A DNA stretch of 63,132 nt, the filler included. It is 6 parts of 6 records of this genome, joined end to end, with 100 filler letters (N's around TTAATTAATTAA, not from the genome) between each part and the next. Parts side by side here need not be neighbours in the genome. Positions count along the whole stretch, not along the records: positions 21,881 to 45,151 come from SRR20825010_6678; 5 more parts are not named here. One strand, 5' to 3'. The notes under the pieces are model-generated. The model did no database searches. It was given only the letters and a program-made list of their open reading frames with translations, and was not told the DNA's origin. Below, one piece after another: positions 10,342 to 43,218 of this stretch. The translations under genes were made by a program, and so were the position numbers. Positions within the stretch are counted from its first letter, which is position 1. Each line of letters begins with the position of its first letter.

Positions 10342-13147
10342 AGTGTCGAACCTCGCCGTCGCCATCCACATTGGTAATGCAGCGGCCGCACAGCTCAGGA
10401 TGCTCCGCGTGGCTACCTACGTCCGGCTGGTGATGCCAGCAGCGAGCGCACTTGGCATGATCCGAAGCCAGCACCTGCACTTTCAGGCCCGCCACAGCAG
10501 TGTCTTCCAGTTCCGCCGGCGCTTCCGCCAGTGGCTTGAGCACAGCGGCAGAAGTAATGGTGACAAAACGCAATTCATCACCGAGACGCTGCAACAACGC
10601 ACTCTGCTCGGCATCCACAAACAACACCACCTCCGCACTCAAGCTACCCTTGATCAGCTTGGCTGCACGAGCGCCTTCGATGGCCTTGTTCACTGCCTGC
10701 TTGGCATCCTGCACCTTGTCCCAGAACGCCCGGCCCATATCGGCATCGTCGGCCAGCGCAAACAGGCCGTCGTACCACTCGGTCAGGAACACGGAATCGA
10801 GCCGCTCACCGGGCAAGTTCTCGTAGATTTCCTCGGCGGTGAAGCTGAGCACCGGTGCCATCCAGCGCACCAGCGCTTGGGCGATATGGTACAAGGCTGT
10901 CTGACAGGAGCGCCGTGCCACGGAATCGGCCTGGGTGGTGTACTGGCGATCCTTGATGATATCCAGATAAAAACCGCCCAGATCCAAGGCGCAGAAGTTA
11001 TGCAGCTTTTGGTAGACCTGATGGAAGTGATAGCCGTCGTACAGGTCTTTAATCTCAGCCTGCACTTGAAGCGCCCGGTCCACAATATAGCGGTCCAGCG
11101 CCAGCATTTGCTCTGGCTGCAGCGCATCCGTCCCAGGCTCGAAACCGCTCAGGTTGGAGAGCAGGAAACGGCTGGTATTGCGAATGCGGCGGTAGCTGTC
11201 ACCCATCTGTTTGAGGATATCTTTGGACACGGACATCTCGCCGCGGTAGTCCGTGGCGCAGACCCACAAGCGCAGAATATCGGCACCCAGATCGTTCCAG
11301 ACTTCCTGTGGCGCAATCACGTTGCCGACCGACTTGGACATCTTGCGGCCGTGCTCATCCACGGTGAAACCATGGGTCAACACGGTGCTGTAAGGCGCCG
11401 CATCACGGATCGCCAGGCTGGTCAGCAGTGACGACTGGAACCAGCCCCGGTGCTGGTCCGAGCCTTCCAGATACAGGTCCGCCGGCGCGCGCAGCTGCTC
11501 GCGCTGGTCCAGCACGCAATAATGGGTGACACCGGAGTCAAACCACACGTCCAGCGTATCGGTGACCTTGCTGTACTGATCCGCTTGCTCGCCCAGCAGC
11601 TCCGCCGGATCCAGATCAAACCAGGCATCAATACCTTCTTTCTCTACTCGCGCAGCCACCTGTTCGATCAGGGCCGGAGTGTCAGGATGCAGCTCACTGG
11701 TTTCCTTGTTAACGAAAAGGGCAATCGGCACGCCCCAGGTCCGCTGACGGGAAATACACCAGTCCGGGCGATCGGTCAGCATGCCTTCAATCCGCGCCTT
11801 GCCCCACTCGGGCAACCACTGCACCTTGTCGACTTCCTGACGGGCACGGGGCAGCAGACCCGCCTGATCCATGGACACGAACCACTGCGCCGTCGCACGG
11901 AAAATCAACGGCGTTTTATGACGCCAGCAATGAGGGTAGCTGTGTTCAATCTTCGCCAGCTTCACCAGATTGCCGCTCTCTTGCAGCGCCTCGATCACCG
12001 GCTCGTTGGCCTTGCTCACATGCAGGCCACCCACTACTGGCAGATCCTCACGGAACAGGCCGTTATCCAGCACCGGGCTGATCGGATCCAGGTCGTACTG
12101 CTTGCCCACCACAAAGTCATCAGCACCATGACCCGGCGCGGTATGCACCAGGCCGGTACCGGCATCGGTGGTGACATGCTCGCCGAAGATCACTGGCACC
12201 TGGGCCTCCAGGAAGGGATGCTGCAAAGGCATCATTTCCAGCTTGCTGCCTGTTACAGTGGCTGAGCGGGACGCCTTCTCCAGCCCCCAGCGCGTCACCA
12301 AATCATCAGCCAACGCCTCCGCCACCAGCAGCTCACGGGGCGCACCGTCCAGCTCCCCGGACAGCAATACATAGTCCAGTTCCGGGTGCACCGCCACCGC
12401 CCGGTTGGCTGGCAGGGTCCAGGGCGTGGTAGTCCAGATCACCAGCGCCGGGGCCCTGGCCTCAATGCCGGTGCGAGCCACAAAATCAGCGACATCAGCC
12501 ACCGGGAATGCCACATCAATGGCTGGCGAAACCTTGTCTTCATACTCCACTTCCGCTTCCGCCAACGCGGAGGCGCAATCCAGACACCAATGCACAGGCT
12601 TGAAGCCCTGCTGCAGGTGACCGTTATCCACGATCTTGCCCAACGAGCGGATGATGTTCGCCTCGAAGGCAAAATCCATGGTCAGGTAGGGGTTACCCCA
12701 GTCGCCAAACACGCCCAGACGCATAAAGTCCGACTTCTGCCCGGCCACTTGCTTGCTGGCGTATTCACGGCATTTTTTACGGAACGTGCCGGCATCCACC
12801 TTGTGCCCAGCCTTGCCGACTTTCTTCTCCACCATCAGCTCGATGGGCAAGCCATGACAATCCCAGCCCGGCACATAGGGCGCATCGAAGCCTGCCAGAG
12901 TGCGGGACTTGACGATCATATCCTTGAGGATCTTGTTCACCGCATGGCCGATATGAATATCGCCGTTGGCGTAGGGAGGGCCATCATGAAGAATGAACTT
13001 GGGTCGGCCGGCAAAGGTCTCGCGAATCTTCTGGTACAGCTGCTTTTGCTGCCACTCTTTGAGTCGCGCAGGTTCACGCTGGGACAGGCCGGCTTTCATC
13101 GGAAAGCCGGTTTGGGGAAGGTTTAGCGTTGCCTTGTAGTCCGTCAT
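10334..13147 (-). CDS. ileS: Isoleucyl-tRNA synthetase
   Basis: HIGH and KMSKS motifs, GWDCHGLP, C-terminal Zn finger. Confidence 0.99.
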
Positions 13148-16458: not shown

Positions 16459-17571
16459 TCACTCAAACACCACCAGATTATCCCGGTGGATCAACTCTTC
16501 CTCATTCATAAAGCCCAGAACATCAGCGATCTCGGCGCTCTTCTTGCGGCAAATTCGGCGCGCATCCGCCGCATCGTAATTCACCAGGCCACAGCCGATC
16601 CGCTCGCCCTGCTCATCCTCACACGCCACCATCTCGCCACGGGAAAACTGACCAAACACATCCACCACTCCCACCGGCAGCAAACTCGAGCCGCCATCAC
16701 GCAAACGCGCCACCGCCCCGGCATCCAGCACCAGGCGCCCGCGCATCTGCAAATGCCCGGCCAACCACTGCTTGCGGGCGTTCATGGGCGAGGTATCCGG
16801 CAACAACGTCGTGCCCGGCCCCTGGCCATCCGCCAACTCGATAAGCACTTCCGGGCTACGCCCGGAGGCAATAGTGGTAATCGCACCCGAGCGAGCGGCC
16901 AACTTGCCAGCCCGCACCTTGGTGGCCATACCACCGCGCCCCAATAAACCGCCACCACCAGCGACACGGGCAATGGCCGGGTCCGAGGCCCGGGCCTCGC
17001 GGATCAGATTAGCATCGGCATTGTTGCGCGGATCTGCATCGAACAAGCCCTCCTGATCCGTGAGAATCAGCAGCCGGTCCGCCTCTACCAGATTCGCCAC
17101 GAGCGCCGCCAGGGTATCGTTATCCCCAAAACGGATTTCGTCGGTGACCACGGTATCGTTCTCATTCACCACCGGCACCACACCGAACCCCAGCAGGGTC
17201 AGCAAGGTAGAGCGGGCATTGAGATAGCGTTTGCGATCAGACAGATCGTCGTGGGTGAGCAGCACCTGGGCGGTATGCAACTGATGCTGCTGAAAGCGGG
17301 ACTCCCAGGCCTGCACCAACCCCATCTGCCCCACCGCAGCGGCGGCCTGCAATTCATGCACGGAATCCGGACGCACCGACCAGCCCAGCCGGGTCATCCC
17401 CTCTGCCACCGCCCCGGATGACACAATAACCACCTCGATGCCGCGCTCACGCAGCGCCACCATGCGGTCCACCCAGGTTTGCATGAGCGCACAGTCCAAT
17501 CCCTTGCCATCATTGGTCAGCAGGGCACTGCCTATCTTGATTACCCAACGCTGGCGATCCGCCACGCTCAC
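16459..17571 (-). CDS. proB: Glutamate 5-kinase
   Basis: [31 protein letters not shown]-terminal PUA domain. Confidence 0.97.
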
Positions 17572-21880: not shown

Positions 21881-21883
21881 GAT

Positions 21884-23272
21884 ATGGCTGACGTCATAGA
21901 TATTAATAAGCTGATGGCTGAAATTAGCTGGCCATCGCTTAAGATGCAGCGCAAGCAAAAAGCCACTGAAATCGAAAAACGTGAATTCGACAACAACCAG
22001 GCTACATCTTTTGTACAGCGTGTGCGAACGATCTTTGCACGGGAACAATCGGACACCGATAAGAGGTATGCGTCTTTTCGCACTCTGATGCTGGAAATTC
22101 GGAGCGAAATAGATTTCGAAACTCGGGTGATCAAAATCAAAGAAGCGCTCGAAGACATGAAGCAAGAGGTTAGGCGCCAATTGCCCAAGTTGCGAGAAGC
22201 GAAAACAAAATATCAGGAAGAAAAAGCCGATTTTGATAATTACCGTGCGCTGAACGGCCTTACCCGACCAGCCATTGAAAAACCGGACCACAAATACTTT
22301 TATGATCTCATTGGCATTCTCGCCATTGAAGCCCTTGGCAACATATCGATGATTGCGCCGGTGTCACCCAATCTCGTGGTGGCGATTATTCTGTCGATGT
22401 TGATTGGCTTTGCAAACTTGAGCGTGATGTTTCTTGTCGGCTATTTTGGCACCAAAGGATTTTACACTCGCTTCCTTTGGCGCAAGGTCTGCGCCTTTTT
22501 AGCGGTAATCTTTGCAATCACCGTCATGCCATTCTTTCACTGGATTGTGAGCATGTATCGCTCACAAGCCGCTCTGGCGTCGAAAAGTCTGGAGAATGGC
22601 GACATCATGGCACTGCCCTCTGAAGGGGCGCTCTTCGAGGCTGTTGTCACCTATTTTTCGAAGCATGGAATTGGTTTTCTGGACCTCACGGCCGTCCTGA
22701 TGTTCGTCATCGGGATAATCATGGGAATATATGCTTGGTACAAAGGCCATAACTACGGAGACCCTATCACTGAATATGCAGCACGGGAAAAGAAACTGCA
22801 GGAGCGGCACGATAACTTTTTAGTTCCAAGCGAGACTCTCCGAGAGTCAATCGTCGACTTGAGGAACGAAGTGCTCGACGAAATTAGTGACTACCTCAGA
22901 ATGCTGCAGCCCCGTCTCCAAAACATCGATATGCACGTGGCTAAAATTGATGGTTTCGAGAAAGAAATAGTCCGGTTCTGCGACAGTTGCCGATCAGCGA
23001 CGGATGTTTTCCTCAAGCGGTATAAATCGGATGTACTGGAAGGGGATATTCCCCCGTGGTTTTCTGCCATCGAGGAGCAAGCGGTTAGTACGATAGAACT
23101 GCCCGATCACTTTACTATCAATCTCAAAGAAGCCAGAGATTTGGCGGAGCAAGCCCACAAACTTGCCGAGACCGAAAGGCCAAGAGCCGAAGCCTATCAG
23201 AACGAAGCATTCAACAAGGTCGATCAGCTTCAAGAAAAAGTCGATAAGCTGCTTGAGGGAGTAGACGCATGA
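21884..23272 (+). CDS. Uncharacterised membrane protein (about 4 TM helices flanked by long coiled coils); gene 1 of the MotAB-like operon, 5' end uncertain
   Basis: 462-aa ORF starting 3 nt from the contig edge. Four hydrophobic segments in the middle, heptad-rich ends, ATGA overlap with the next gene. Confidence 0.8.
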   Translation: MADVIDINKLMAEISWPSLKMQRKQKATEIEKREFDNNQATSFVQRVRTIFAREQSDTDKRYASFRTLMLEIRSEIDFETRVIKIKEALEDMKQEVRRQLPKLREAKTKYQEEKADFDNYRALNGLTRPAIEKPDHKYFYDLIGILAIEALGNISMIAPVSPNLVVAIILSMLIGFANLSVMFLVGYFGTKGFYTRFLWRKVCAFLAVIFAITVMPFFHWIVSMYRSQAALASKSLENGDIMALPSEGALFEAVVTYFSKHGIGFLDLTAVLMFVIGIIMGIYAWYKGHNYGDPITEYAAREKKLQERHDNFLVPSETLRESIVDLRNEVLDEISDYLRMLQPRLQNIDMHVAKIDGFEKEIVRFCDSCRSATDVFLKRYKSDVLEGDIPPWFSAIEEQAVSTIELPDHFTINLKEARDLAEQAHKLAETERPRAEAYQNEAFNKVDQLQEKVDKLLEGVDA

Positions 23273-24150
23273 GGCGCCCCCGAAATCACCGTTCACGGCC
23301 CCAACGGGCCCGACGGGGTCAGTCATTTTTTTCGTTTGAGTTATTGAGACGGAGCGCCGGACTTTTGTTGATGGCCGGCCTCTTCGGTACGGTTGCCTAT
23401 CTGGTGATCAATGACGACAAATGTGATTATGCCAGCACAAATTTCTGTTCAAAGGAATGCCCTCCGAAGAACATTGTCGCGATCGGGGTTGATGCGAGCG
23501 GGGGGTTTGACGCCCGCCAGCAAGCTGCTCTCATGAGCAGCATACGCAGGGCAATTTCGACTGTGCCCGGATCCGAATATTCCTCAACAGGCACAGGCCT
23601 GAGCAAAGGCGATCGTATAGATATTTACAACCTTCAGGCGGCAGCTGATGAGGCTATCGCGCCGCTATTATCAATCTGCTTTCCTGGGCAGGAGCCGACA
23701 TCAGCCAATGATAATGCTCAGTTGGTTCGGAGCTATCACAATCGATTTTGGCAAGAAGTTACTCAGGTTATTTCCGGTGGGCTAAAAGCAGAAGCGGTAA
23801 ATCAGTCACCCATTGCAGAAAGTATTGCTTCCATCGGCGATGTGGCCTTCCGGTCGGCTGACGCCATGTCATCTAAATATATGATCATCGTCTCCGACTT
23901 GCTCCAGAACAGCCCTGCATTCTCTGTCTATCGCGAAAGCCCTGATTTCAGCGCACTCAAAAAAAGACCCGAGTATGTAAAGCTTCGGACCGACCTTGGA
24001 GGAGCCAAAGTCTGCATGATCCGAATAAGTCGGTCTGATGCGCTAGAGCGCGCACGCCAAACTCCGAGACTATTGAATTTCTGGGCCGAATATGTCGCTG
24101 ACAATCTCGGCGAATACGTTGTGGAATGCGAGACGCAGTTCAGGCTTTAA
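23269..24150 (+). CDS. Membrane-anchored vWA-like protein
   Basis: Basic N-tail and one TM, Cys-rich linker, VAIGVDASG (DxS), SPIAESI, IIVSDLLQNS, resembling MIDAS-type elements. Confidence 0.65.
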   Translation: MRRPRNHRSRPQRARRGQSFFSFELLRRSAGLLLMAGLFGTVAYLVINDDKCDYASTNFCSKECPPKNIVAIGVDASGGFDARQQAALMSSIRRAISTVPGSEYSSTGTGLSKGDRIDIYNLQAAADEAIAPLLSICFPGQEPTSANDNAQLVRSYHNRFWQEVTQVISGGLKAEAVNQSPIAESIASIGDVAFRSADAMSSKYMIIVSDLLQNSPAFSVYRESPDFSALKKRPEYVKLRTDLGGAKVCMIRISRSDALERARQTPRLLNFWAEYVADNLGEYVVECETQFRL

Positions 24151-24182
24151 GCGAGTACTAACTGGGATATTGGGGGCCCGTC

Positions 24183-25667
24183 ATGAGGAAAAAATCAAAA
24201 CCTGCGAGCGAAGACACCGAGCAGGATCTCGCCACAGACGCAGGTGATGCCGACACACCTGAAGTGGCGGAAAGTCAACAAGTGGACGACACGCCACTTG
24301 ATCAAAAAGATGTATCATCCCCTCAGGAAGAAGACATTAGTGCAGTTGACCCTGAGGCACAGAAGGAAGGCGAAGGCGAAAGCGATGTCGATACGGCGTC
24401 CTTGGGGAAGCCGACTAATCCGTCGAACTGGCTTGGGGGGCGTTTTTTCAACGGCCCCCATGACGATAATGTGTCCAGTGTTACGCGAGATGTACCCCGG
24501 TACAAAGTGTCGGACCAAAAGGAAAAACAAGCATTCATTGCCGTATTGGTGGTCGGCGTGGCCTTCGTCTTTTTTACCAAACTTTTCGGCTTGCTACCCA
24601 CATGGATCATTACCGGCACTTCAATGGTACTCGTCGGCGGATACGCATATCTCGCCTATATGATGCGAAACGAGGGAATTCGGGTCGACCGCGCCGGTGA
24701 CAACGCCTACTACCTTGGCTTGGTGTATACACTTACCAGCATGTCTGTTGTACTGATCCGCGGAGATTTCGGCGCTGGTGCGGCTGAACAGATTTTGTCG
24801 GGGTTTGGTGTCGCGCTCGGATCCACAATCGCCGGTATCATATCGCGAATAATCCTGATCCAGTTCCGTGAGGGGGTAGAAGACCTGGAGCGAAGTGCAA
24901 TGGTTGTCCTCAAAAACACCGTGCAAGACCTTGAGCACGCACTCATCAGTTCCGTTGAGCGGGCAACTGCGTTTTCTCGTGTGTTGGAAGATCACTCCTT
25001 GGCCGTGAAGGACACGTTCGCGGCGAGCTTCAAGGAGATCGAGACAACATCTCATGAGAACGTGAAAGAAATGAGCACTGCCCATATTGAATCACAAAGG
25101 GCGCTTGCGGAAGAAACCAAAGAAATCCTCAAAAGCGCTCGGGACTCTATGGCAGAAGCGGTGACACATATGGCTGAAACCAGTCAGATAATTCGTGATG
25201 GTGCGAAGAGTGAACGGGAAGAATTTGGCCGCTTTTTGCAAGCGATCAGTACATTCTCCACCCAATTGGAAAAAGTTCAGGTCCCAACAGACATCATCAC
25301 CGAGTTCATCCGCAGCCTTGAGGAACAACGCGACCATACCCGTCGCATCATCAGCGACACCGATTTGCTATATACAAATCTCAATGACAAAAGTGTCAAC
25401 CTGAACAGGCGTCTTGAGGATATCACAGCAGATATTCAGGAACTCGCGAAGTCTATCAAGGACGAACACTCTTCAGTTTCAGATGTGACACATAGCTTGG
25501 CAGCGTTGGCCGATGAGGTAAAACGCTCCGGTACGCAGATCTCTGCCACCAGTACATCGCTCAACGCAGGCGTCGACGAATTCAAAAAGAACAGCAGTGC
25601 CTATGTGAACACACTTGCTGAAACAGCAAATTTTCTCGCTGATGAAATTGGCCGAGGCAAACGGTGA
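24183..25667 (+). CDS. MotA/TolQ/ExbB-like proton-channel subunit with long helical tail (ZorA-like architecture)
   Basis: Four TMs. YYLGLVYTLTS and GFGVALGSTIAG resemble the last two MotA/ExbB TMs. C-terminal coiled coil of about 265 aa. Confidence 0.7.
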   Translation: MRKKSKPASEDTEQDLATDAGDADTPEVAESQQVDDTPLDQKDVSSPQEEDISAVDPEAQKEGEGESDVDTASLGKPTNPSNWLGGRFFNGPHDDNVSSVTRDVPRYKVSDQKEKQAFIAVLVVGVAFVFFTKLFGLLPTWIITGTSMVLVGGYAYLAYMMRNEGIRVDRAGDNAYYLGLVYTLTSMSVVLIRGDFGAGAAEQILSGFGVALGSTIAGIISRIILIQFREGVEDLERSAMVVLKNTVQDLEHALISSVERATAFSRVLEDHSLAVKDTFAASFKEIETTSHENVKEMSTAHIESQRALAEETKEILKSARDSMAEAVTHMAETSQIIRDGAKSEREEFGRFLQAISTFSTQLEKVQVPTDIITEFIRSLEEQRDHTRRIISDTDLLYTNLNDKSVNLNRRLEDITADIQELAKSIKDEHSSVSDVTHSLAALADEVKRSGTQISATSTSLNAGVDEFKKNSSAYVNTLAETANFLADEIGRGKR

Positions 25668-26743
25668 TGCGGCAATCGGATACAGAGTATCGCCGTGGAA
25701 CACTTCTCGGCCTCACTCTAGCGGAAACACTGCTCATTCTGCTTTTCCTGTTTCTTCTCCTTTTTACAGATGTCATCGACCAAAAGGACAAGGAGCAGGA
25801 TAACCTGACGGCTGAGATCAAGCGTTGGCGAGAGGGGATCGAGAGTATTTTCGAAGTCCAACAGCCAGAGAAGTTGCCGGGAAAAATCGATCCGCAAGAC
25901 CTGGATCGCCCTCTCGATGAGTTGCAGCTTATTGCCAACGAATATGCCACGGCCCGTGAAGAAATTGATCAACTGAGAAGTACACTTTCAAAAATTTCCG
26001 ACGACCCATCAAAGATGGATGAAGTGGTTGAGCGTATCAAAGAAGTCGCCAAAGCAGAGGCCGAACTAAAAAAAATAGAAGAAAAGTTACCCAATAAGGA
26101 TGTTTTGGTCGCCCAGGCCGAACAGCTTAAACCGCAGGAAAACCCAGGCGCGGTTATCGAACAGGTCATGGGTGAGCGACTGGCCTTGCAGCAACAAGGC
26201 GGGAACATTGATGACGCCATTACATGTGCCGGCAAGCTCAAATCGTGCGACATGGAAAAGGAAGGTCTCATCCAAAAGTTTGCGGCAACCCTCGCGAATT
26301 TGGAGCCGGCGTCATGTTTAAAGTCGAATATGTCGTTAGATGGGATTCTGTCCGAAGGGAGCATTCTCTACAGCTTCGACATTTACCTTTCGCCTGAAGG
26401 TATCATGGTCATCCAGGGCGATGGTGTCCCCCCTCGGCCAGAGTATGGCTGGTATACGGATTGGTATGCGACGTTGGGCACGCTACCACTAGAGAGACCC
26501 CTTTCCGCCGAAGAGTTTCGCCGCGCGTTCAAGCCCTTCTACGACAGAGCTGCCATCACAAACAATGCCGAACAAGGGCGGGATGGCAGGCCGTTTGGTA
26601 ACAGCACGCTGGACTGTCGATTTTATGTTCGGCTCTTTCGCACGCCTGACCTGACCGATGTAAATTCAGCCGAAACCTTGCGCCACAGTGTTGAAAATAT
26701 CTTCTATAAAAGCGAGCGGGGATCAAAAGCCTATGATGGTTGA
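25664..26743 (+). CDS. MotB/ExbD-like single-pass partner with coiled-coil stalk
   Basis: GLTLAETLLILLFLFLLL single TM with Glu at the Asp position, coiled coil, C-terminal alpha/beta domain. GTGA overlap with the upstream gene. Confidence 0.62.
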   Translation: MMRQSDTEYRRGTLLGLTLAETLLILLFLFLLLFTDVIDQKDKEQDNLTAEIKRWREGIESIFEVQQPEKLPGKIDPQDLDRPLDELQLIANEYATAREEIDQLRSTLSKISDDPSKMDEVVERIKEVAKAEAELKKIEEKLPNKDVLVAQAEQLKPQENPGAVIEQVMGERLALQQQGGNIDDAITCAGKLKSCDMEKEGLIQKFAATLANLEPASCLKSNMSLDGILSEGSILYSFDIYLSPEGIMVIQGDGVPPRPEYGWYTDWYATLGTLPLERPLSAEEFRRAFKPFYDRAAITNNAEQGRDGRPFGNSTLDCRFYVRLFRTPDLTDVNSAETLRHSVENIFYKSERGSKAYDG

Positions 26744-26945
26744 TAGCGCCCTGAAACTAGCCTTGAGCAAGTTGCTCAGTAGTGCGTTGAAGCGCGTCGG
26801 CACCGAGTATGATTTCGAAGGCGTGGATTCTTTCCACCCCCGTGAAATTAACGACCTGAGGCCGATGTTTTCGTCACTGAAGGACCGGCAAGCAATTTAT
26901 TTGCGAGCGCGCTACCATATCCAGAAATTCATCCGCAAATTCTAA
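26733..26945 (+). CDS. Small hypothetical protein, possible fifth operon gene
   Basis: ATG overlaps the end of the MotB-like gene. About 70 aa. Confidence 0.4.
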   Translation: MMVDSALKLALSKLLSSALKRVGTEYDFEGVDSFHPREINDLRPMFSSLKDRQAIYLRARYHIQKFIRKF

Positions 26946-26989
26946 ACCCGAATGCGCTTGGAAGGGCGGCATGGCAACGGGAAACCCTG

Positions 26990-28024
26990 TCAAACTCCCT
27001 CCAATCTCAACGCAATTATTTCCTTGGCTTTCAGGCGAATTTCGCGACTGAAATCGTACCAGTACCGCCCCTCTGGCACATATTCAAAGTCGTGCAGCTT
27101 GGGATCCGTGAGCGCGTCGGTCACAATGCATATTCGGTATATGCCATCTGCAAAATGACCTTTTTCAAATGCCCTCATCTTCTTTGTCTCATTCGGACTA
27201 AACTCTGCCTGCACATCAGGCACTGATCGTCCTTTAACCTCAATGCATAGCGTGGTGTCTGCCCGCTGGGCCTTCAGGTCATACCCCAAATTTTGGTCTT
27301 CAAAAGACTCGACGCTATAGCCCAAGCCAACGAAATGCCGTTTGACGTGCTTGATTGCACTCTTTTCCACACGCTTATTATTTTCCACATCGACACGGCG
27401 CTTCGCCTTTTTTGTCAGCGGTCGAGGCACACGTCCGGCGACAATATCGTTGATCGCCGCCTGGATATGCGCACATTGGTCTGTCGCTTTATTGAGATAA
27501 AAAACCGGCGCCTGACCGGGCCATCCACTCCCTCTGCCTTGGGCTGTCGGGATGATGGTTGTGCGTTTACTGAGCGGGAGCAGATGACAGTCTCGCGCTT
27601 TCGCTTTCACTCTGAAGGTGAACTGTTCGCCTTTATAGGTCCGCATTTTCTTCGCGTTTTCATCATCATGTTCTTGCGGGTAACGGTAGAGAGTGGCGTT
27701 GTCATACCACCCCACGATCGCTTTTCCTTTGCCTTGGCGGGCAGGTGCCGTCCAGACTACTCTCACACCCTCGATGGCTTGATCTTTGGGCGCCGCCCCC
27801 AGGTTTTGAAGATTGAGCTGTTTCGGCTGACCGGATGACAAGGCATATTGGACATGGCCGTAACAGTATCCATCGATGTTCAGAAAATTGAACATTTCAT
27901 GGCTCCAGTCCAATTCGGCGGGCCATTTAAAACCGCCAGCATAAAAGGAAGGCGGGGCCTCATATCCCTGATATTCTTTCATCCATACGCCGTGCAACAG
28001 GACGGTTGGCGGTGTTTCTGGCAT
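26990..28024 (-). CDS. DUF3883/NOV_C PD-(D/E)xK nuclease with an uncharacterised N-terminal domain
   Basis: EKSAI...LGYDL...IEVKG...FSPNE. GGGAG RBS before the ATG at 28024. Confidence 0.8.
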   Translation of the reverse strand: MPETPPTVLLHGVWMKEYQGYEAPPSFYAGGFKWPAELDWSHEMFNFLNIDGYCYGHVQYALSSGQPKQLNLQNLGAAPKDQAIEGVRVVWTAPARQGKGKAIVGWYDNATLYRYPQEHDDENAKKMRTYKGEQFTFRVKAKARDCHLLPLSKRTTIIPTAQGRGSGWPGQAPVFYLNKATDQCAHIQAAINDIVAGRVPRPLTKKAKRRVDVENNKRVEKSAIKHVKRHFVGLGYSVESFEDQNLGYDLKAQRADTTLCIEVKGRSVPDVQAEFSPNETKKMRAFEKGHFADGIYRICIVTDALTDPKLHDFEYVPEGRYWYDFSREIRLKAKEIIALRLEGV

Positions 28025-28249
28025 TGCGTGCTCCCATTTGGCATCAGACGTCGGCTGAACCTGAATGCATGGCCGCAACTTAGCCAAATATTTTCACACC
28101 TGTCACGAGCAAAAGCGCTCCCCAGCAAGCCCTCACAACCAGAGACAGTGAAGCACGCATTCGGCCCACACTCAAATATGGTTAACGCTGGACGCATGAA
28201 GTTTGCATCCGCATTTCTCTCGTCGGCCTTCATTTTCCGTTCAATATAT

Positions 28250-28289: not shown

Positions 28290-29438
28290 ATGCTCGCCAC
28301 CATGTCCGACCCCGAAAAAGCCGATGAAACGGCCGATCGGCCACCGTTGTCACCTCCCCTCGAGGCGGACCAAGGCCTCACGCCTGACGCACCTGCCACC
28401 AATCTGTTTACAACCGCCGACGCGGACGCTGCCCTTCTTATGGGGTGGCTTCCGGTCCAGGAAGCGCTACAACACGACCTGGATGAAGTGTATGCCCGGG
28501 TACGCGAACTCTCCTCGATGGCGCGTTCGGAGAATACCAAACGGGCCTACCGGGCCGGCTGGCGCCAGTATGAGGACTGGTGCCGCGGCATTGGGGTCAA
28601 ACCGCTCTCCGGCGACCCTGGCATCGTCGCACTCTATCTGGCCATGCTCTCGAAAAAGGTGCTGCCCTCGACCCTCAAGGCCCGGCTCGCGGTGATCTCG
28701 GTCGCGCACCGCCTCGCCGGCATCAAGCTCGACACCCGCCACGAAGCGATCCGGCTGGTGTGGCAAGGAGCGGCGCGCGAGAAAGGCCTCGCGCCGCGCC
28801 GCCAAGCTCGCGCGCTGCACTATCGGGCGCTGCCCGCGCTTATGGATGTGTTTGATGATTGCCCGCTCGATATTCGCAACAAAGCCATGGTGCTCCTCGG
28901 CTTCGCTGGCGCGCTCAGGCGCACCGAGATCTCCCAAATGGCGCTGGAGCATGTCACCCTCGCCAGAGACGGTCTCACGCTCTTCCTACCCCGCTCCAAG
29001 GCGGACCGTTTTGGTCTTGGCGAGAAGATCTTCATCTCTCCCCATCCTGACGCGCGCTTGTGCCCAATCAAAGCCCTCACAGCCTGGCTCAAGATCCGGC
29101 CCGAAAGCGGCAGCCGGCTCTTCCTGTGTGCGAACAGGAACGGCAGTTTCCGGGACAAAGGGATCAGCGAGCAAACCGTCGCGCGTATCGTCAAGGATGC
29201 GGTCGAAGCCCTCGGCTTCGACCGCACCGTCTATAGCGGACATAGCCTGCGCGCCGGGCTGGCCACCTCCGCCGCTGACGCCGGCTGCGACCTCAAGGCC
29301 ATCATGACCCAAACCCGGCTGCGCACCGCCAAACAGGCCATGACCTATATCAGGGATGCGGAGCGGCGAAGGCAGAGCGTGACGCGGACGCTGTTTCAGC
29401 CGATCGAGGTGGACAGTCAGGAGCCCTCACCCCCTTGA
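28290..29438 (+). CDS. Cre-like tyrosine recombinase (start may be 28302)
   Basis: SENTKRAY SAM-like domain, GALRRTE, RSKAD, SGHSLRAGLAT, catalytic Tyr in AMTYIR. Confidence 0.92.
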   Translation: MLATMSDPEKADETADRPPLSPPLEADQGLTPDAPATNLFTTADADAALLMGWLPVQEALQHDLDEVYARVRELSSMARSENTKRAYRAGWRQYEDWCRGIGVKPLSGDPGIVALYLAMLSKKVLPSTLKARLAVISVAHRLAGIKLDTRHEAIRLVWQGAAREKGLAPRRQARALHYRALPALMDVFDDCPLDIRNKAMVLLGFAGALRRTEISQMALEHVTLARDGLTLFLPRSKADRFGLGEKIFISPHPDARLCPIKALTAWLKIRPESGSRLFLCANRNGSFRDKGISEQTVARIVKDAVEALGFDRTVYSGHSLRAGLATSAADAGCDLKAIMTQTRLRTAKQAMTYIRDAERRRQSVTRTLFQPIEVDSQEPSPP

Positions 29439-29444
29439 GGGAGC

Positions 29445-30656
29445 TCATAGTTCCCTTTGCGCCCGTTGCCTCGCTTCATAGGCGCGCACGTCTGACACGG
29501 GCACCCGGTGCGTAATCCGCTTGCCGTGCCACAAAGGTTGATCTCTCAAATGGCCGCTAGCCACCAACCGGTCGAACTCCCGTTTCCCGATCGACAGGCG
29601 CGCGCAAGCATCCCTTTTTGTCAGAAAATTAGCCTGTAGCGGATCGAAGCCTCGTGCGCCGCCGCACCCGGTGACGCCCAACCTGATTTCTTCCTGAATA
29701 ATAAAATTATGTGTTTCGTTGAGACAGCTATCTACTGTGACGACCTGCTTGACCCCGTACAAAGTCGGATAGAGCCGCCCCAGAGAGTTCCAAAGGCCGC
29801 TTTCACTGACGGCTTCGTCCAATAAGCGGGCTTCGTGGCATTGGCGGAGATAGTTGTGGAAACTCGTTGGCCAGTGCTCGATGGCTGGCACCACCAATTT
29901 CGCGAATTCCGGCCGGTCGAAATCGTTCACCTCGTTTTTCCGCTCAGGATGATAGCGATAAAGAAGCTCCAAGGTCGTGAGCAGTTCGCCGAGCGACATC
30001 ACATCTGCTATTCTATGACAGTCGTTAATTCCGAGACCTAGTCCCCACTTCCCCGCCTTATGGGCAACCAGACGGGACAATTTGAGAGCTGGTTCCGTGG
30101 CCGGGCGCGATTTCGCCTCATACAGAGCAGCACCGCATTCACCACAGCTCAATGGATCGGGGCGGAAGCAGGTAAGCCGGGCACCACAAGAAGGACAGCG
30201 GTCGCACAACATCGTGTTGTGACGAGGACATGCGGTGAATACGCGCAGCTCCCAGCAACGGTAGAAAAACCCGTCTTCCGCCAGGCATTCTGCGCAGAAG
30301 CGACGTGCCTGGACATCCACATTTTTTGCCCGAGCCACTTCACCGCCCGGCACAAACACGAAGTTTGCCGGCTTCCGCTCCGGCTTAAATGTCATTCTGG
30401 TAAAGCGACCGGCGAAGTAGCCAGCGTCGGCGTCCATCTTCTCGGCCAAGAGCCGGAGGGTTGCCAGATATTCCTTCCGCGGCTCGATATGACACCCGTA
30501 GGTCTCGGCGATGGCTTTGATCGACGGATAATAGTTGGCCGCAGTCAACCGCATCAGATAGCCAACAAAACTTTCGCGGGCGTGCGGTACCACAAAGATA
30601 GGGAAAGCGAGTGGCCTATCACGAAGCGGCCGGGACGGGATTTTACGCTCAATCAC
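29445..30656 (-). CDS. tniQ: TniQ/TnsD family target selector with C-terminal Xis-like HTH
   Basis: PHARESFVGYLMRL..AN and Zn ligands CAEC, CPRH, CPSC, CGEC. GTG start overlaps the tnsC stop. Confidence 0.88.
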   Translation of the reverse strand: MIERKIPSRPLRDRPLAFPIFVVPHARESFVGYLMRLTAANYYPSIKAIAETYGCHIEPRKEYLATLRLLAEKMDADAGYFAGRFTRMTFKPERKPANFVFVPGGEVARAKNVDVQARRFCAECLAEDGFFYRCWELRVFTACPRHNTMLCDRCPSCGARLTCFRPDPLSCGECGAALYEAKSRPATEPALKLSRLVAHKAGKWGLGLGINDCHRIADVMSLGELLTTLELLYRYHPERKNEVNDFDRPEFAKLVVPAIEHWPTSFHNYLRQCHEARLLDEAVSESGLWNSLGRLYPTLYGVKQVVTVDSCLNETHNFIIQEEIRLGVTGCGGARGFDPLQANFLTKRDACARLSIGKREFDRLVASGHLRDQPLWHGKRITHRVPVSDVRAYEARQRAQREL

Positions 30657-31548
30657 ACCATTGATCCGAGAAAGGGTTTCCGACGCCTTCCAGATCTTTT
30701 TCTTGGCTGCACAACTGGTTAAAAGCGCACCAGAGATCTTTGGCCACAATCTCCTCCCGACGCTGTGACAAGGCCTCTAGCCCAGCCGCGATCAGAAGCC
30801 GCGAAACAAACCCTACCCGCCCCAGGGTTGCCCGGTGAACTTGTGCTGCCATGGCTTTTGTCGCCAACATAGAGGCGTTAGCGAAAGGCATCGCATCGCT
30901 TAGAAAGAGCAATAAACATTGAAAGGCCTCAATCTCGTCCTGGGATGTAAAGCCAAATGGCTGAACGGTAACAATCCGTTGGGTCCGGCGATGCAACTGC
31001 TCGCTGGACGAAATGACTTGTGTCATCTTAGGAAGGCCGAACACGAAGATCGAAAGGTGGATTTTATCAATAAGGGCTTTGAACCAGTCGACACATTTTT
31101 CAAGAACTTTCTCTGTTTCGCGATCGATAAAGTGATTCAACTCGTCAAACACCACGGCAGAGACTTTCAGGTCCTTTATAAGACCGACAGCGCGAGTGGT
31201 GAGCTCTGAAGTCCGGCCTTTTTCAGCCCGAGGATCGCCAAGTGCCTCCAAGACGGCTGTGGCTAAATTTTTGACCGTGCTATTCGGAGGAACGTAGACA
31301 ACCAAGATGGTGCCACCACCAAGGACACTTCCTCCGTTCCGGCGGACAAAAAACTCCATCAAGCTTGTTTTACCCAGACCCGTCGGTCCCTGAACAAGCA
31401 TCATCTTGCCCGATTTCGCTCTTTTCATGCTGCAGTGAAAGAGCCGGAGTTCACGGGCTAACCGATCGATTTGGTCGTACACTTGGTATTGGTGATCGAG
31501 CGCTCCCAGAATTGTCACACGCTTTTCAACTTCATCCTCGGTCAACAT
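30649..31548 (-). CDS. tnsC: TnsC/TniB AAA+ ATPase
   Basis: Walker A GPTGLGKT, Walker B VVFDELNH, QLHRR arginine finger. Lies between tnsB and tniQ. Confidence 0.9.
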   Translation of the reverse strand: MLTEDEVEKRVTILGALDHQYQVYDQIDRLARELRLFHCSMKRAKSGKMMLVQGPTGLGKTSLMEFFVRRNGGSVLGGGTILVVYVPPNSTVKNLATAVLEALGDPRAEKGRTSELTTRAVGLIKDLKVSAVVFDELNHFIDRETEKVLEKCVDWFKALIDKIHLSIFVFGLPKMTQVISSSEQLHRRTQRIVTVQPFGFTSQDEIEAFQCLLLFLSDAMPFANASMLATKAMAAQVHRATLGRVGFVSRLLIAAGLEALSQRREEIVAKDLWCAFNQLCSQEKDLEGVGNPFSDQWCD

Positions 31549-33476
31549 TTGGACGTACCTCGCTCTTTATCCTGCAAACTTTTGCGAAGGGTCGCAATCT
31601 CTTGGTGCGTTGAGGCATCCGGATTAAGGGTGTTTTTAGGCGCCTTTGCCTTGGGTCGCCGCGGTGTCTTCAGAGCTGCAACTGCGTGAGCTCGATCATT
31701 GCCGCGCACCACTTTCCGGCCGTATGCGGTAAGATGCTTCCTGATTTTTCGTGCTTGCACCGCCGCGTCTGAGCCCGCGATAAGTGCCTTCTCGCGCTCC
31801 ACTTCCTCAGCCCTTATGGCCTCATGGAGCCACAGGTCGCGCCCTCGGTATTCCGTCTTGTCGGTCGGCACCTTGATAAACCGCTGCTCATTCGGAACTT
31901 TGACGTAAATAGCCCCGATATCTACAGGGTCTACTCTGAGATCGATTATGAAAGGCTTAGCCCCGAGCTTCTGCCAAAGTCTCTTTAACTCGTCACTCTG
32001 GTAAAATGTCCCGTGAATTTCGATACCACGCTTCTGCAGTGTGCGCGTCTCATGAATGGAACAGCTCATGCGCACCGATTCAGGGCTGGCTGGCAGGTCC
32101 ACGGGGAACTGCTTCACGCCTTCGACCCACTTATTCATCGGAATGTCGCAGAGTGTCCTATGAAAACGGTGAACATACACATCGACTATCCACTTATGCA
32201 GACTCTCGTAGAGCTCTTGATAAGGTATACAAGCTCTCTGAGCTGCAAGCGTTACTTCAGTTGTATTCTCGACATCGGGAATGAAGCCAGGCAAACCTTT
32301 CAGAAAACTGACCTTAAGCGTTCCAAAGAAGGACTCTATCGTGCCTTTCCAGTTGGGTGAACCGGGCGGGCAAATGACCGTATCAATACCCATTTCGACA
32401 CACATCCGCTCGTGCGCTTCCCCGACAAACGGTGCCCCACGATCGGCCACCAATTTGTGTGCCAGACCATGAACCGGGTATGCCTTCTCCACCGAAGGCA
32501 GGCTCGAAAGGAGGTCACTATACCCGAGAATACCACGCCGGATCCCAGCGCCAACACTTGCAAAATCCGCTCGAAACCCAAGGGAAATGGCCCACGGCAC
32601 GCGCGAAAACAAATCGATCGCGACATATAGCCAGGGACGAATGACACCCCCACCAGGCAAGGGGATGTAAATGGGCAGCATCTGATGGTCTTCATAGAGA
32701 TATTGAAGCGGCGCAGTGGCCTCATAGCCTTTACCTGTCGCCCGAAACTGAAGGTCAGCATGGCGGCGTCCATGGTGGGCGACCGCAACAGTGTAGCAAT
32801 CAAGGCTCCCGAAGACACGATAGCACGTCGCTTTACTGACCGTCTTTGCTCTTCCCGTGTACCCGGCAGCGGCGCGGATATTTTCAATTCCGGGAATAAT
32901 TTCTTCTTCGATTATGACGCGCTTCGAAGGTGGATTGACTTTCAAAAATTCTCGCTTGATGACCTGTTCGCAGAACGTCATTTCTTCATCCGTGAAGGCA
33001 TGCCTTTTGCGGCCGCGGCCACGGAATTTAGGCACCAGAACGTCGTTGTTTTTACCATGCCTGAGCCATTCCCGATACCAGCTCGCCACTGTACTTCGCT
33101 TTGGCGGACGTTTATCCGCAATGATTACCGCGACATCACGGATCACAGCCTCTATAATCGAACGGACGGATTGGTCGGGGCGACACGCACGGTGCAGCGA
33201 CGTAACGTACCAAAGTCGCCTGCTGTAGACCTCCTTGGCTTTTCCGGTTAGGTCTACCCTGTAGCCGAGCTTTTCCTTTTGTTCTTCAGGCTGAAACAAA
33301 GTCAATTCACCTGAGAGAATTTTCGCTTCCAGATCCTCCCTGCTCATTGTGCGATGGCGACCGTTCGCCACAATCTTGAGCACCACCCCATGCCGAGTTT
33401 CTAACTCGTCGATTTTCAGGTCAGTATCACCATCAAACAAAATAAGACCGACGTGCAATTTGATCCGTTCACTCAC
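31542..33476 (-). CDS. tnsB: TnsB/TniA DDE transposase (Mu-like)
   Basis: YEDH, IDLFSR, VADRG, KGTIESFF (DDE intact) and Mu C-terminal VDPVDIG. GGGAGG RBS before the GTG at 33476. Confidence 0.92.
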   Translation of the reverse strand: MSERIKLHVGLILFDGDTDLKIDELETRHGVVLKIVANGRHRTMSREDLEAKILSGELTLFQPEEQKEKLGYRVDLTGKAKEVYSRRLWYVTSLHRACRPDQSVRSIIEAVIRDVAVIIADKRPPKRSTVASWYREWLRHGKNNDVLVPKFRGRGRKRHAFTDEEMTFCEQVIKREFLKVNPPSKRVIIEEEIIPGIENIRAAAGYTGRAKTVSKATCYRVFGSLDCYTVAVAHHGRRHADLQFRATGKGYEATAPLQYLYEDHQMLPIYIPLPGGGVIRPWLYVAIDLFSRVPWAISLGFRADFASVGAGIRRGILGYSDLLSSLPSVEKAYPVHGLAHKLVADRGAPFVGEAHERMCVEMGIDTVICPPGSPNWKGTIESFFGTLKVSFLKGLPGFIPDVENTTEVTLAAQRACIPYQELYESLHKWIVDVYVHRFHRTLCDIPMNKWVEGVKQFPVDLPASPESVRMSCSIHETRTLQKRGIEIHGTFYQSDELKRLWQKLGAKPFIIDLRVDPVDIGAIYVKVPNEQRFIKVPTDKTEYRGRDLWLHEAIRAEEVEREKALIAGSDAAVQARKIRKHLTAYGRKVVRGNDRAHAVAALKTPRRPKAKAPKNTLNPDASTHQEIATLRKSLQDKERGTSKC

Positions 33477-33477
33477 T

Positions 33478-34068
33478 TCATCCTCCCATCTTCGGGTTTC
33501 GGGATAATAGGCAGTCGGGTCCAAGGCCTGCTGACAGGTCGGCTTGCAGCTGGCAGGAGATAATTAGCTGATCCACGTGACCTTCTGTGCCCAGGTAGCT
33601 CACCAACTGAGCCAGTGTGGCTGGCCATTCACCCGGGTAGGCGTCGAGCCTTTCCAATAGTTGACGAGACGGTACTTGCCGTCGGCTTCGTCGCAGGCGT
33701 GTGACCGTTGCCCTGACGGAAGCATCGAGCAAGAAATCACGATCAAAAAGCCGAAGCTGCAGGCCTGCACGCTGCATGGCCCGGCAGGTTTCTGATAGAG
33801 CTTTCGGAAGGGCGCCCGCCGGGCGCAAATCGGCAAAATAGGTGCCTGAAAAGGTGTACACCAACGCCGGAAACTTTTGTCGGGCCATGCCGTTGATATC
33901 CGGGGACATCACTTGCGCACGAATATGGCGCACATGGGGGTCTACATCCAGATACTCAAACAGGGCCTGCTGTGCCACACCACGCCACTTGAGAATACCG
34001 TCCGATTTCCTGCTGGCAATATAGCCTTCGAGAAAAAGGCGGGTCTGCGGAGTAACATCGATACCCAT
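33478..34068 (-). CDS. tnsA: TnsA-like protein with degenerate nuclease active site
   Basis: GYIASRK, LDVDPHV...AQ, GLQLRLF follow the TnsA_N pattern, immediately upstream of tnsB. The catalytic E, PD and ExK motifs are absent. Confidence 0.7.
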   Translation of the reverse strand: MGIDVTPQTRLFLEGYIASRKSDGILKWRGVAQQALFEYLDVDPHVRHIRAQVMSPDINGMARQKFPALVYTFSGTYFADLRPAGALPKALSETCRAMQRAGLQLRLFDRDFLLDASVRATVTRLRRSRRQVPSRQLLERLDAYPGEWPATLAQLVSYLGTEGHVDQLIISCQLQADLSAGLGPDCLLSRNPKMGG

Positions 34069-36390: not shown

Positions 36391-37320
36391 TTACCTGCAC
36401 TCATGCACCTCGACAGTGAGGTGGCAAATGCCGATTTCGCGTTCAATACGGGATTTGTAGTGATCGGGGTGTTGCGGTGCGTGTGCCACCACAGACACAA
36501 TAGCGGCGAGCTGGTTTGAGTTGAGCCGCCACACGTGCAGGTCGGCTACCTTGTCATCCCCACTGTCTTCGATCACGGTGATGATCTTCTCGCGCGCGGC
36601 ATCGTCATCGTGCCGGTCCAGAAGGATCGCGGCGGTATCCTTGCCAAGCCCGATTGCCCATTTGGTGATAATCACGGCACCGACGATGCCCATCACAGGA
36701 TCGAGCCACACCCAGCCGAACGATTTGCCGGCCAGCAGGGCAACGATGGCAAGGACAGACGTGAGCGCGTCCGCCATCACATGCAGATAGGCTGCGCGCA
36801 GGTTATGGTCGTGATGATGGTGGTGGCTGTGACCATGGCCCTCGTGGTTGTGCTCGCCATGATGATGATGGCCACCAAGCATGAAGGCACTGGCGATATT
36901 TACCACGAGCCCCAGCACCGCAACACCAATGGCTTGGTTGAACTGGATCGACTGTGGCGTGATCAACCGTTCCACCGATTCAACCGCCATCAAAAGTGCG
37001 ACAACCCCGAGCACAATAGCGCTTGAATAGCCTCCCAGCACGCTCACCTTGCCGGTGCCGAAGCTGAACGCATCGTTGTCTGCATGCTTGCGCGCGTATG
37101 CATAGGCAAACAGCGTGATGCCGAGCGCTGCGGCGTGGGTGCCCGTATGCCACCCGTCGGCCAATAGCGCCATGGAGCCAAAGGTAACGCCCGCCGCAAT
37201 TTCAGCCACCATCATGATGACGGTCAGCCACACCACCCAGCGTGTGCGCTTCTCGGCATGGTCACTCGCACCATGGAAGTCATGATCATGTGTCCACTTG
37301 CTCATATTATCCGCGTGCAT
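36391..37320 (-). CDS. dmeF: CDF family Co/Ni/Zn efflux transporter (DmeF-like)
   Basis: SMALLADGWH, FSFGTGK, poly-His loop, NLRAAYLHVMADALTS, HLTVEV. Confidence 0.9.
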   Translation of the reverse strand: MHADNMSKWTHDHDFHGASDHAEKRTRWVVWLTVIMMVAEIAAGVTFGSMALLADGWHTGTHAAALGITLFAYAYARKHADNDAFSFGTGKVSVLGGYSSAIVLGVVALLMAVESVERLITPQSIQFNQAIGVAVLGLVVNIASAFMLGGHHHHGEHNHEGHGHSHHHHHDHNLRAAYLHVMADALTSVLAIVALLAGKSFGWVWLDPVMGIVGAVIITKWAIGLGKDTAAILLDRHDDDAAREKIITVIEDSGDDKVADLHVWRLNSNQLAAIVSVVAHAPQHPDHYKSRIEREIGICHLTVEVHECR

Positions 37321-37348
37321 TTCATGTTCCTTACTTTGGAGAAATCTC

Positions 37349-37374
37349 TGAGGTGGCCCCGAAGGGCCACCTCA
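37349..37374 (-). other. Stable intergenic hairpin between czcA and dmeF
   Basis: 11-bp perfect stem TGAGGTGGCCC with a cUUCGg loop on the minus strand. No U-tract. Confidence 0.6.
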
Positions 37375-37390
37375 TGACAGGTTTGGGGTG

Positions 37391-40567
<3,177 letters not shown>

Positions 40568-41830: not shown

Positions 41831-41831
41831 G

Positions 41832-43142: not shown

Positions 43143-43218
43143 GATGTCTACTCTCATCAAAAAACAACAGAGAGCGCGCAGCGACTGCCGCACGCGAGAA
43201 TGTCAAGATTTGAAGAGA

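Follow-up and report, generated by a model that had tools for sequence, protein, structure and literature searches.

To our knowledge, flagella, Ton/Tol systems, and gliding were for a long time the only settings in which 5:2 ion-driven motors had been recognized. Zorya showed that motors of this kind can also serve immunity. The Zorya types I–III with which we compare are ZorA/ZorB systems (accessible portions of PMC11946911 and PMC11890865), and ZorA from E. coli has a cytoplasmic tail ∼500 amino acids (aa) in length (residues 223–729; accessible text of PMC11946911). The accessible text of PMC12204202 proposes a new class of force transducers in which von Willebrand factor A (vWA) proteins work with TolQ-like motors, with either a TolA/TonB-like transmembrane (TM) helix carrying an SHLS/His motif or a "transpore helix" with an Asp and no TolR gene. 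Here we describe an operon, g1 to g5, in a window of 63,132 nucleotides (nt; the whole stretch of DNA analyzed), which is made up of contigs with N/TTAATTAATTAA spacers between them; the operon-bearing contig spans 21881–45151. We put the chances at about even that the operon encodes an unnamed inner-membrane stator-like machine, driven by the proton-motive force (PMF) and analogous to Zorya with other partners, that senses the envelope and mounts a response to phages or mobile DNA. What is new here is an unnamed and widespread gene set; 5:2 motor systems as a kind are already known.

The candidate motor pair g3 and g4

The five genes are encoded on one strand, are translationally coupled, and open the contig (table 1). 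A first-pass annotation of the window had proposed four coupled genes and described their junctions accurately, since direct reading of the sequence confirmed an ATGA overlap of g1 and g2 at 23269–23272, a spacing of 32 nt between g2 and g3, and a GTGA overlap of g3 and g4 at 25664–25667. The ATG of g5 overlaps the stop codon of g4. None of the five proteins matches a Pfam, NCBIfam, or PADLOC model at threshold. The complete genome of a Kordiimonas sp. (G001, 4.18 Mb) contains the operon at 100% identity and has five canonical MotA_ExbB (PF01618) genes elsewhere.

Table 1. Genes of the operon, with coordinates along the window
Gene	Coordinates	Strand	Product	Features
g1	21884–23272	+	462 aa	4-TM inner-membrane protein with cytoplasmic coiled coils
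g2	23269–24150	+	293 aa	TM-anchored periplasmic protein, probably vWA-like
g3	24183–25667	+	494 aa	4 TM with MotA/ExbB-type motifs; 266-aa helical tail
g4	25664–26743	+	359 aa	Single TM with invariant Glu21
g5	26733–26945	+	∼70 aa from ATG 26733	85 aa if GTG 26688 is the start

Protein g3 starts with an acidic disordered region (residues 1–110), present only in its closest homologs, followed by four TM helices (111–135, 140–164, 168–193, and 200–227 in the model) and an all-helical cytoplasmic tail (229–494). Its last two helices have motifs of the MotA/ExbB/TolQ type, YLGLVYT (G179, L180, and T183) and GVALGSTIAG (A211, L212, T215, and G218). The four helices, the motifs, and a helical tail of ∼265 aa were already recognized in the first-pass annotation and all hold. 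Aligned to 17 TolQ/ExbB proteins from relatives of Kordiimonas (hhalign; P = 9e-4, 57 columns), residues 168–223 of g3 pair in exact register with residues 147–203, such that invariant G179, L180, and T183 coincide with invariant G158, L159, and T162 of TolQ, and invariant A211, L212, T215, and G218 coincide with invariant A191, L192, T195, and G198. All seven residues of g3 are invariant in 56 sequences of its family. Pore-lining signatures (G-L-x-G-T/A-L-x-x-T-x-x-G, with two threonines) are present on the last two TM helices, which bear G-L-x-x-T and A-L-x-x-T-x-x-G in register with TolQ-TolR, ExbB-ExbD, and MotA-MotB systems. In ExbB, TolQ, and MotA, these motifs are on the helices that line the ion path, with the threonines oriented toward the Asp of the partner protein. 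The filter residues of ZorA that correspond to T183 and T215 are Thr147 and Ser184 (accessible text of PMC11946911). PF01618 is the sole membrane-domain family that recurs for g3, with 12 of 56 family members matching at E ≤ 0.1 (best 7.8e-5).

Comparisons of predicted structure place ZorA chains as the best natural neighbors of the TM core of g3. In an AlphaFold2 model, the predicted local distance difference test is 83–95 across the four TM helices, and residues 232–493 are all helix. In the ESM Atlas, the top structural neighbors are two clusters, one ZorA-like/MotA_ExbB (TM-score of 0.62 over 132 aa) and one MotA/TolQ/ExbB (0.57). A Foldseek search has ZorA in second rank, from the type II ZorAB complex 8vvi (E = 0.22, TMt 0.78, root-mean-square deviation [rmsd] 2.8 Å). 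With VIA-align, residues 127–251 match ZorA of 8vvi (S. kujiense, type II; Z 10.7–10.8, rmsd 2.1–2.2 Å, 96–97 of 99 residues), 8vvn (Shewanella, type I; Z 9.7), and 8qyh (E. coli; Z 8.7), and these three structures are the only natural proteins matched on this segment. We assign g3, with good confidence, to the MotA/ExbB/ZorA superfamily, of which it would be a very divergent member, and not to the orthologs of ZorA.

Judged from its sequence, g4 is MotB-like in layout, with an acidic residue in its one TM helix and an OmpA domain in a large clade of its homologs. The N-terminal motif YRRGxxLGLTxAE is invariant and Glu21 falls within the TM helix, the only one of the protein, in all 44 aligned homologs, which extends to them what the first-pass annotation had read from the window alone. 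A periplasmic coiled-coil linker (∼40–210) precedes a C-terminal alpha/beta domain (∼230–350) with conserved Cys. Pfam identifies the OmpA domain in 16 of the 44 homologs, and a GH[TS]D motif occurs in 22 of 48. As in TolQ-TolR, ExbB-ExbD, and MotA-MotB pairs, the partner gene is directly downstream of, and translationally coupled to, that of the larger subunit. The differences from these motors are in g3, in which TM2 and TM3 are not separated by a large cytoplasmic domain, the C-terminal tail is long, and the score falls below the Pfam threshold, and in the neighborhood, where none of the TolA/TonB, Pal, or flagellar genes adjoins the operon.

The Zorya-like architecture proposed in the first-pass annotation stands as a likeness and falls as a membership. 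As in Zorya, a MotA-like subunit with a long all-helical tail is encoded ahead of a partner that spans the membrane once, bears an acidic residue in that TM helix, and has a head in the periplasm; in part of the g4 family that head is of the peptidoglycan-binding, OmpA-like kind. The distribution is sporadic and island-like, and a nuclease is often encoded alongside. In contrast to Zorya, the tail of g3 is about half the length of that of ZorA from E. coli; ZorA hidden Markov models (HMMs) match this tail and not the motor domain; and g4 has Glu21 where ZorB has Asp26, is without detectable similarity to ZorB, and in the window is without an OmpA match. Likewise, the top match of g3 to seven ZorA proteins (hhalign) is tail to tail, the NCBIfam ZorA models give no match to g3 at E ≤ 0.1, and antiphage_ZorA_3 touches only g1, with 12 bits against a cut-off of 250. 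Searches of PDB sequences with profiles of g3, g4, and g1 yielded coiled-coil matches only. The constant partners are the membrane proteins g1, g2, and g5, and the associated nuclease is membrane-anchored and predicted to be periplasmic, whereas that of Zorya is cytosolic. The known partners of Zorya, which the first-pass annotation did not recognize in the operon, are absent: the PADLOC scan gave no match to ZorC/ZorD, ZorE, or ZorF/ZorG among the five operon proteins and the neighboring NOV_C protein, and none was found among 73 open reading frames (ORFs) flanking related loci. Membership in Zorya was rejected on the ZorA HMMs, on the Asp of ZorB and its peptidoglycan-binding domain in the g4 of the window, and on the type-specific effectors. 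The expectation that the cluster corresponds to no named system was borne out, as PADLOC-DB 2.0.0 (a comparison that does not extend to newer DefenseFinder models) holds no matching system and the literature yielded no name for this gene set, subscription papers and supplements, including that of PMC12204202, being outside its coverage.

Operon limits, partner proteins, and distribution of the module

In G001, g1 is the first gene of the operon and is preceded by a ribosome-binding site (GGGGGGA), and a 32-codon extension of g1 seen in that genome is not preserved in the duplicate nearby, which comprises the promoter and the first 107 nt of g1. Therefore, ATG 21884 is the likely start of g1 and nothing is missing upstream, contrary to the suggestion in the first-pass annotation that upstream genes had been lost at the contig start. 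The duplicate is 4.35 kb upstream at 93% identity (12570–12813 and 16925–17164 of locus L003; ∼896.6 kb and ∼900.9 kb of G001:C1). Between the two copies are a PIN-domain gene, an Endonuclease_NS gene, and a fragment of a DDE transposase. The duplication looks like a scar of insertion or recombination and is probably the reason why the assembly breaks at 21881.

At the other end, contigs from three RNA-seq libraries of one study, ∼95% identical to the operon, span 21884 to ∼26980. These contigs, from a relative, join g1 to g2 and g2 through g3 to g4; they are alike up through g5, and one diverges at 26977, just past it. They fit a five-gene transcription unit, with carry-over of DNA being possible. 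The contigs do not cover 27084–28100, and because the sequence of the relative diverges at 26977, this gap carries no weight on expression of the NOV_C gene. They also have 6 nt fewer at 24366, in frame and within the acidic disordered N-terminus of g3.

The second protein, g2, has a basic N-terminus, a TM anchor (29–47) that is present in 38 of 41 homologs, and a periplasmic alpha/beta domain of ∼240 aa with two near-invariant Cys. Among the positions like those of a MIDAS (D75-x-S77, S180, and S209-D210), D75, S77, S180, and D210 are conserved, and the second Ser of DxSxS is not. The nearest cluster by features in the ESM Atlas is annotated as "VWFA domain-containing protein" (score of 0.95), and g2 superposes at a TM-score of 0.65 over 205 aa on a cluster in which 44% of members are VWA_2. 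The periplasmic domain is probably vWA-like, as the first-pass annotation had it; the ESM Atlas favors that assignment, and sequence comparisons do not add to it. None of the 41 homologs matches a Pfam vWA model at E ≤ 0.01, a search of PDB sequences with g2 gave no match, and hhalign comparisons to two single vWA proteins aligned the MIDAS strand without significance (P = 0.069 and P = 0.45). With the published vWA transducers, as far as they are described in the accessible text of PMC12204202, g2 has in common that it is tethered to the inner membrane, periplasmic, and probably vWA-like and is encoded beside a TolQ/MotA-like gene. The differences from that description are that the TM helix of g2 has neither His nor Asp and is a plain anchor, that a separate protein, g4, bears the TM acid, and that g1 and g5 are additional.

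No relative of known function was found for g1, which has no match above coiled-coil noise in Pfam, PADLOC, NCBIfam, or PDB sequences; a profile word-index search returned two proteins only. Its TM helices are at ∼142–160, 164–182, 204–222, and 262–280, and its two ends are long cytoplasmic helices, an N-terminal helical region and a C-terminal coiled coil. E149 and N153 in TM1 and N178 in TM2 are invariant within the membrane, and a DDPYPGYG-type motif after TM4 and YRxANxxAR are further motifs. The likeness of g1 and g3 in hhalign is that of coiled coils only (18%), and therefore we do not call them paralogs.

The small fifth gene that the first-pass annotation had allowed for is real, and its start is most likely ATG 26733. 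The protein has an amphipathic N-terminal helix and a basic amphipathic C-terminus. With phmmer it was found only in its own locus among 55 loci. In 31 of 47 loci, a small ORF with an N-terminal helix motif of [DEQ]xxLxxL abuts the stop codon of g4, usually with a basic amphipathic C-terminus, compared to 0–3 of 46–47 loci at five other offsets that served as a control; the module therefore consists of five genes.

The 55 loci were collected by a pattern search with the g3 alignment, and all ORFs in them were then compared to the operon proteins with phmmer (E ≤ 1e-3). Matches to g3 are present in all 55 by construction, and those to g2, g4, and g1 in 52, 48, and 42, respectively. The order g1-g2-g3-g4 is constant, on one strand, with genes that abut or overlap. 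This conservation of order exceeds chance by far and confirms that the four genes co-occur outside of the window. In eight further loci, a divergent ORF of ∼480 aa occupies the position of g1 upstream of g2, and the six of these that were aligned all share the invariant residues of g1. Of the seven loci with no match to g4, four stop at a contig edge, and in L021 the gene exists and was missed by phmmer.

Hosts are mostly Alphaproteobacteria, with Beta- and Gammaproteobacteria and single metagenome-assembled genomes (MAGs) of Acidobacteriota, Gemmatimonadota, and Ignavibacteria also holding the module. The SNase neighbor in a Phycisphaerales MAG (L033) is identical in sequence to that in a Sphingobium MAG (L034), and E-values for g2–g4 are identical too, likely as a result of bin contamination or very recent transfer; therefore the Planctomycetota record is not counted as a separate phylum. 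An exhaustive profile search assigned at least 1,097 metagenome representatives (50%-identity clusters) to the family of g3 at E ≤ 1e-30, and among the matches listed, most span nearly the whole profile. The module is also present on 24 plasmid records from Rhizobium, Sinorhizobium, Paracoccus, Microvirga, and Tistrella, including pRL11 of Rhizobium johnstonii 3841, where its genes are RL_RS31080–31095. On pRL11 and pTT13-1, its genes are annotated in RefSeq as three hypothetical proteins and an "OmpA family protein." Close to home, the g3 profile finds the module in one of 61 relatives and one of 32 species of the genus, with two further matches being to the tail only. A tblastn search of g3 against 50,697 phage records gave no match at E ≤ 1e-3.

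Candidate functions of the module

The module is horizontally scattered, lies in an island of low GC (0.48–0.53 in the operon vs. ∼0.60 in the flanks), and is sometimes among immune genes. We therefore infer a sensor of envelope perturbation with a defense response. A role in defense is plausible. In the mechanism that we propose, a ring of g3 would surround the TM helix of g4 as a 5:2-type unit, and ions would pass via Glu21 of g4 and the pore-lining Thr183 and Thr215 of g3. The coiled coil of g4 would reach into the periplasm, where its head, which is like OmpA in one large clade and in the protein of the window is another domain with Cys residues, would bind the cell wall or envelope, and the helical tail of g3 would project into the cytoplasm, as in ZorA. 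The vWA-like g2, the four-TM g1 with its buried Glu and Asn, and the amphipathic g5 would be obligate partners. Periplasmic sensing may be through the head of g4 and the vWA domain of g2, and cytoplasmic or membrane output through the tail of g3, g1, and g5. The likely effector in the OmpA-type clade is the periplasmic SNase with its membrane anchor. In loci that have no SNase, such as that of the window, g1 could provide the output, e.g., through gated leakage of ions.

Neighboring genes are the context for this proposal. An SNase nuclease gene adjoins the module in 17 loci, usually just downstream and on the same strand, and most of these nucleases have an N-terminal TM anchor and Cys pairs. 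Fifteen of the 17 loci belong to the OmpA-type clade and are therefore kin, not independent cases. A PADLOC scan of the 73 flank ORFs matched 12 to known immune proteins, in 11 loci: type I restriction endonuclease (L018), Cas6 (L028 and L035), Cas10 (L030 and L035), GajB-like helicase (L034), pAgo (L049), Hhe/PDC-S37 (L047), MkoA-like (L019), SngA (L045), IetS (L021), and Avs2 (L029). Other loci have ordinary genes or genes for cell-wall enzymes as neighbors.

A narrower proposal, which we hold only tentatively and consider somewhat improbable, is that the module is a fourth independent lineage of stator-type immune systems, one that keeps its output in the envelope. In this proposal, a PMF-driven motor of g3 and g4, with a periplasmic vWA sensor to arm it, would register penetration by a phage or plasmid, and either the SNase would destroy incoming DNA in the periplasm or the g1 channel would open and the membrane collapse. 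If so, immunity would act before DNA reaches the cytoplasm. More generally, an immune module would be a second case, independent in sequence, of an immune motor, and one with wholly different partners; a nonimmune module would add a new kind of envelope force transducer. The module is widespread, occurs in tractable strains, and is annotated only as hypothetical proteins, and it makes testable how such motors sense damage to the envelope and what their tails signal to.

Several results weigh against a motor with a role in defense. For g3, the match of the window protein to PF01618 is below threshold (13.5 bits and E = 0.063, vs. a cut-off of 22.9), the hhalign probability for its alignment to TolQ/ExbB is just 22.8%, PADLOC ZorA models match only residues 231–487, which is the tail (best E = 2.5e-5), and Foldseek returned nothing at E ≤ 0.001. 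The MotA/ExbB fold that the first-pass annotation expected of g3 has the matched ZorA chains (Z 8.7–10.8) on its side and, on the other, the Foldseek E-value given above and designed helical bundles, which reach Z 9.4–9.7 on residues 127–251, within the range of ZorA. For g4, the TM acid is Glu where MotB, ExbD, TolR, and ZorB have Asp, and the protein of the window belongs to a clade other than the OmpA-type one and has no OmpA domain by Pfam. Comparison to four ZorB proteins with hhalign was not significant (P = 0.19), nor was that to TolR/ExbD, in which the 19 aligned columns are away from the TM acid (P = 0.015). VIA and Foldseek searches with the whole model of g4 matched helical hairpins at 73–160 and gave no fold match for the head, which they barely probed. 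The vWA-like character of g2 comes from a single source. The module has no conserved cytoplasmic enzymatic effector. Regarding the neighbors, 59 of the 73 scanned flank ORFs have no match to any defense family, many loci have ordinary neighbors (efflux, sugar transport, GST, nitroreductase, PBP1A, and transglycosylases), and the scan of the 73 ORFs was made with no control set.

The alternative that fares best, and which we nevertheless consider unlikely, is an accessory, nonimmune system for force transduction of the Tol/Ton type, in which the motor of g3 and g4 pulls on TM-anchored g2 and powers tethering, uptake (e.g., of DNA as a nutrient), or remodeling of the cell wall at the periplasm or outer membrane. 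Transducers that pair vWA proteins with TolQ-like motors have been proposed (accessible text of PMC12204202), and the recognizable heads, those of g2, g4, and SNase, all face the periplasm and each have Cys pairs. Some neighbors fit as well. In five closely related loci of Hyphomonadaceae (L009, L010, L011, L014, and L015), the strand of g1 has a gene for an outer-membrane beta-barrel (Alginate_exp) 109–149 nt upstream, transglycosylase genes (PBP1A, SLT, and RlpA-like) adjoin the module in pRL11, L016, and L007, and one nuclease neighbor has an extracellular Excalibur domain. Against force transduction are the rarity of the module among congeners and relatives, its low GC, its mobile-element setting, and the immune-gene neighbors in 11 loci. 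The TM helix of g2 has neither the SHLS/His motif nor the TM Asp of the families in the accessible text of PMC12204202, and outward transduction of force needs neither the long cytoplasmic tail of g3 nor coiled coils in the cytoplasm such as those of g1.

It is quite improbable that the module instead serves the mobile elements that carry it, through entry exclusion, control of mating pairs or DNA entry, or periplasmic destruction of competing DNA. Eleven of the 24 plasmids are typed as conjugative, genes for a type IV secretion system coupling protein, ArdC-like proteins, a serine recombinase, and thermonucleases adjoin the module in some loci, and in the window its neighbors are a tyrosine recombinase and TniQ/TniB/TniA. 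However, most loci are chromosomal and have no genes for transfer within 5 kb, nonmobilizable is the type of 9 of the 24 plasmids, and no inverted repeats put the operon inside the Tni element; the only matches are of 13–17 nt and due to chance. Mobile cargo, as suggested in the first-pass annotation, is supported in the sporadic distribution, low GC, and Tni neighbors, and no terminal repeats were found that link the operon to the element. Because service to mobile elements overlaps with defense against mobile DNA, it is a sub-case and not a true alternative.

Equally improbable is that g3 is no motor subunit and merely a convergent helical bundle in a structural or scaffolding coiled-coil complex of a PspA/Vipp1-like or Mce-like stress kind: the MotA/ExbB statistics are all sub-threshold, designed bundles score nearly as well as ZorA, and the tail resembles apolipoprotein, Vipp1/PspA, and other generic helical proteins, but the seven invariant residues in register with those of TolQ/ExbB include both pore threonines, the downstream partner has the exact layout of MotB (a single TM with an invariant acid and, in a large clade, an OmpA domain), and three ZorA structures are the only natural TM proteins matched.

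Flanks of the operon and further observations

Downstream of the operon are a convergent NOV_C gene, the tyrosine recombinase, TniQ/TniB/TniA, and a czc-type efflux cluster. The NOV_C (DUF3883) gene, which was treated as a possible part of the module in the first-pass annotation, drops out, as phmmer finds it only in its own locus among the 55. The recombinase gene and those for TniQ, TniB, and TniA (rve and Mu transposase C-terminal domain) are on the minus strand and, with the genes that come after them, fall in 28290–33524 and 36391–43193. A helix-turn-helix regulator, a CDF transporter, and a czc-type RND/MFP/OMF efflux set follow the Tni genes, and together they form a Tn5053/Tn7-like element with metal-efflux genes adjoining the operon. 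Upstream of the island in G001 (L003 5190–12370, minus strand) is a peptide-export cluster that encodes an ABC transporter with a C39 peptidase, a protein of the HlyD family, and two DUF547 proteins; it also has an ORF of 373 aa to which Pfam gives no match.

Three loci, from Geminicoccaceae and an alphaproteobacterial MAG, have genes of type III CRISPR-Cas systems beside the module. In L035, a type III CRISPR-Cas locus, all of g1–g4 is located between Cas6 and Cas10, whereas in L030 Cas10 is downstream of the module and in L028 Cas6 is upstream. Pfam found no CARF or other sensor domain or fusion near the module among 13 ORFs of the Geminicoccaceae loci. The module in the type III CRISPR locus could be an ancillary module or a mere insertion in a defense island.

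Many of the proteobacterial matches to the motor domain of ZorA are within open frames of 1,000–2,000 aa (e.g., in G256, G208, G083, and G067). These frames are far longer than ZorA1, which is ∼650–730 aa, and therefore may have extremely long tails or fusions.

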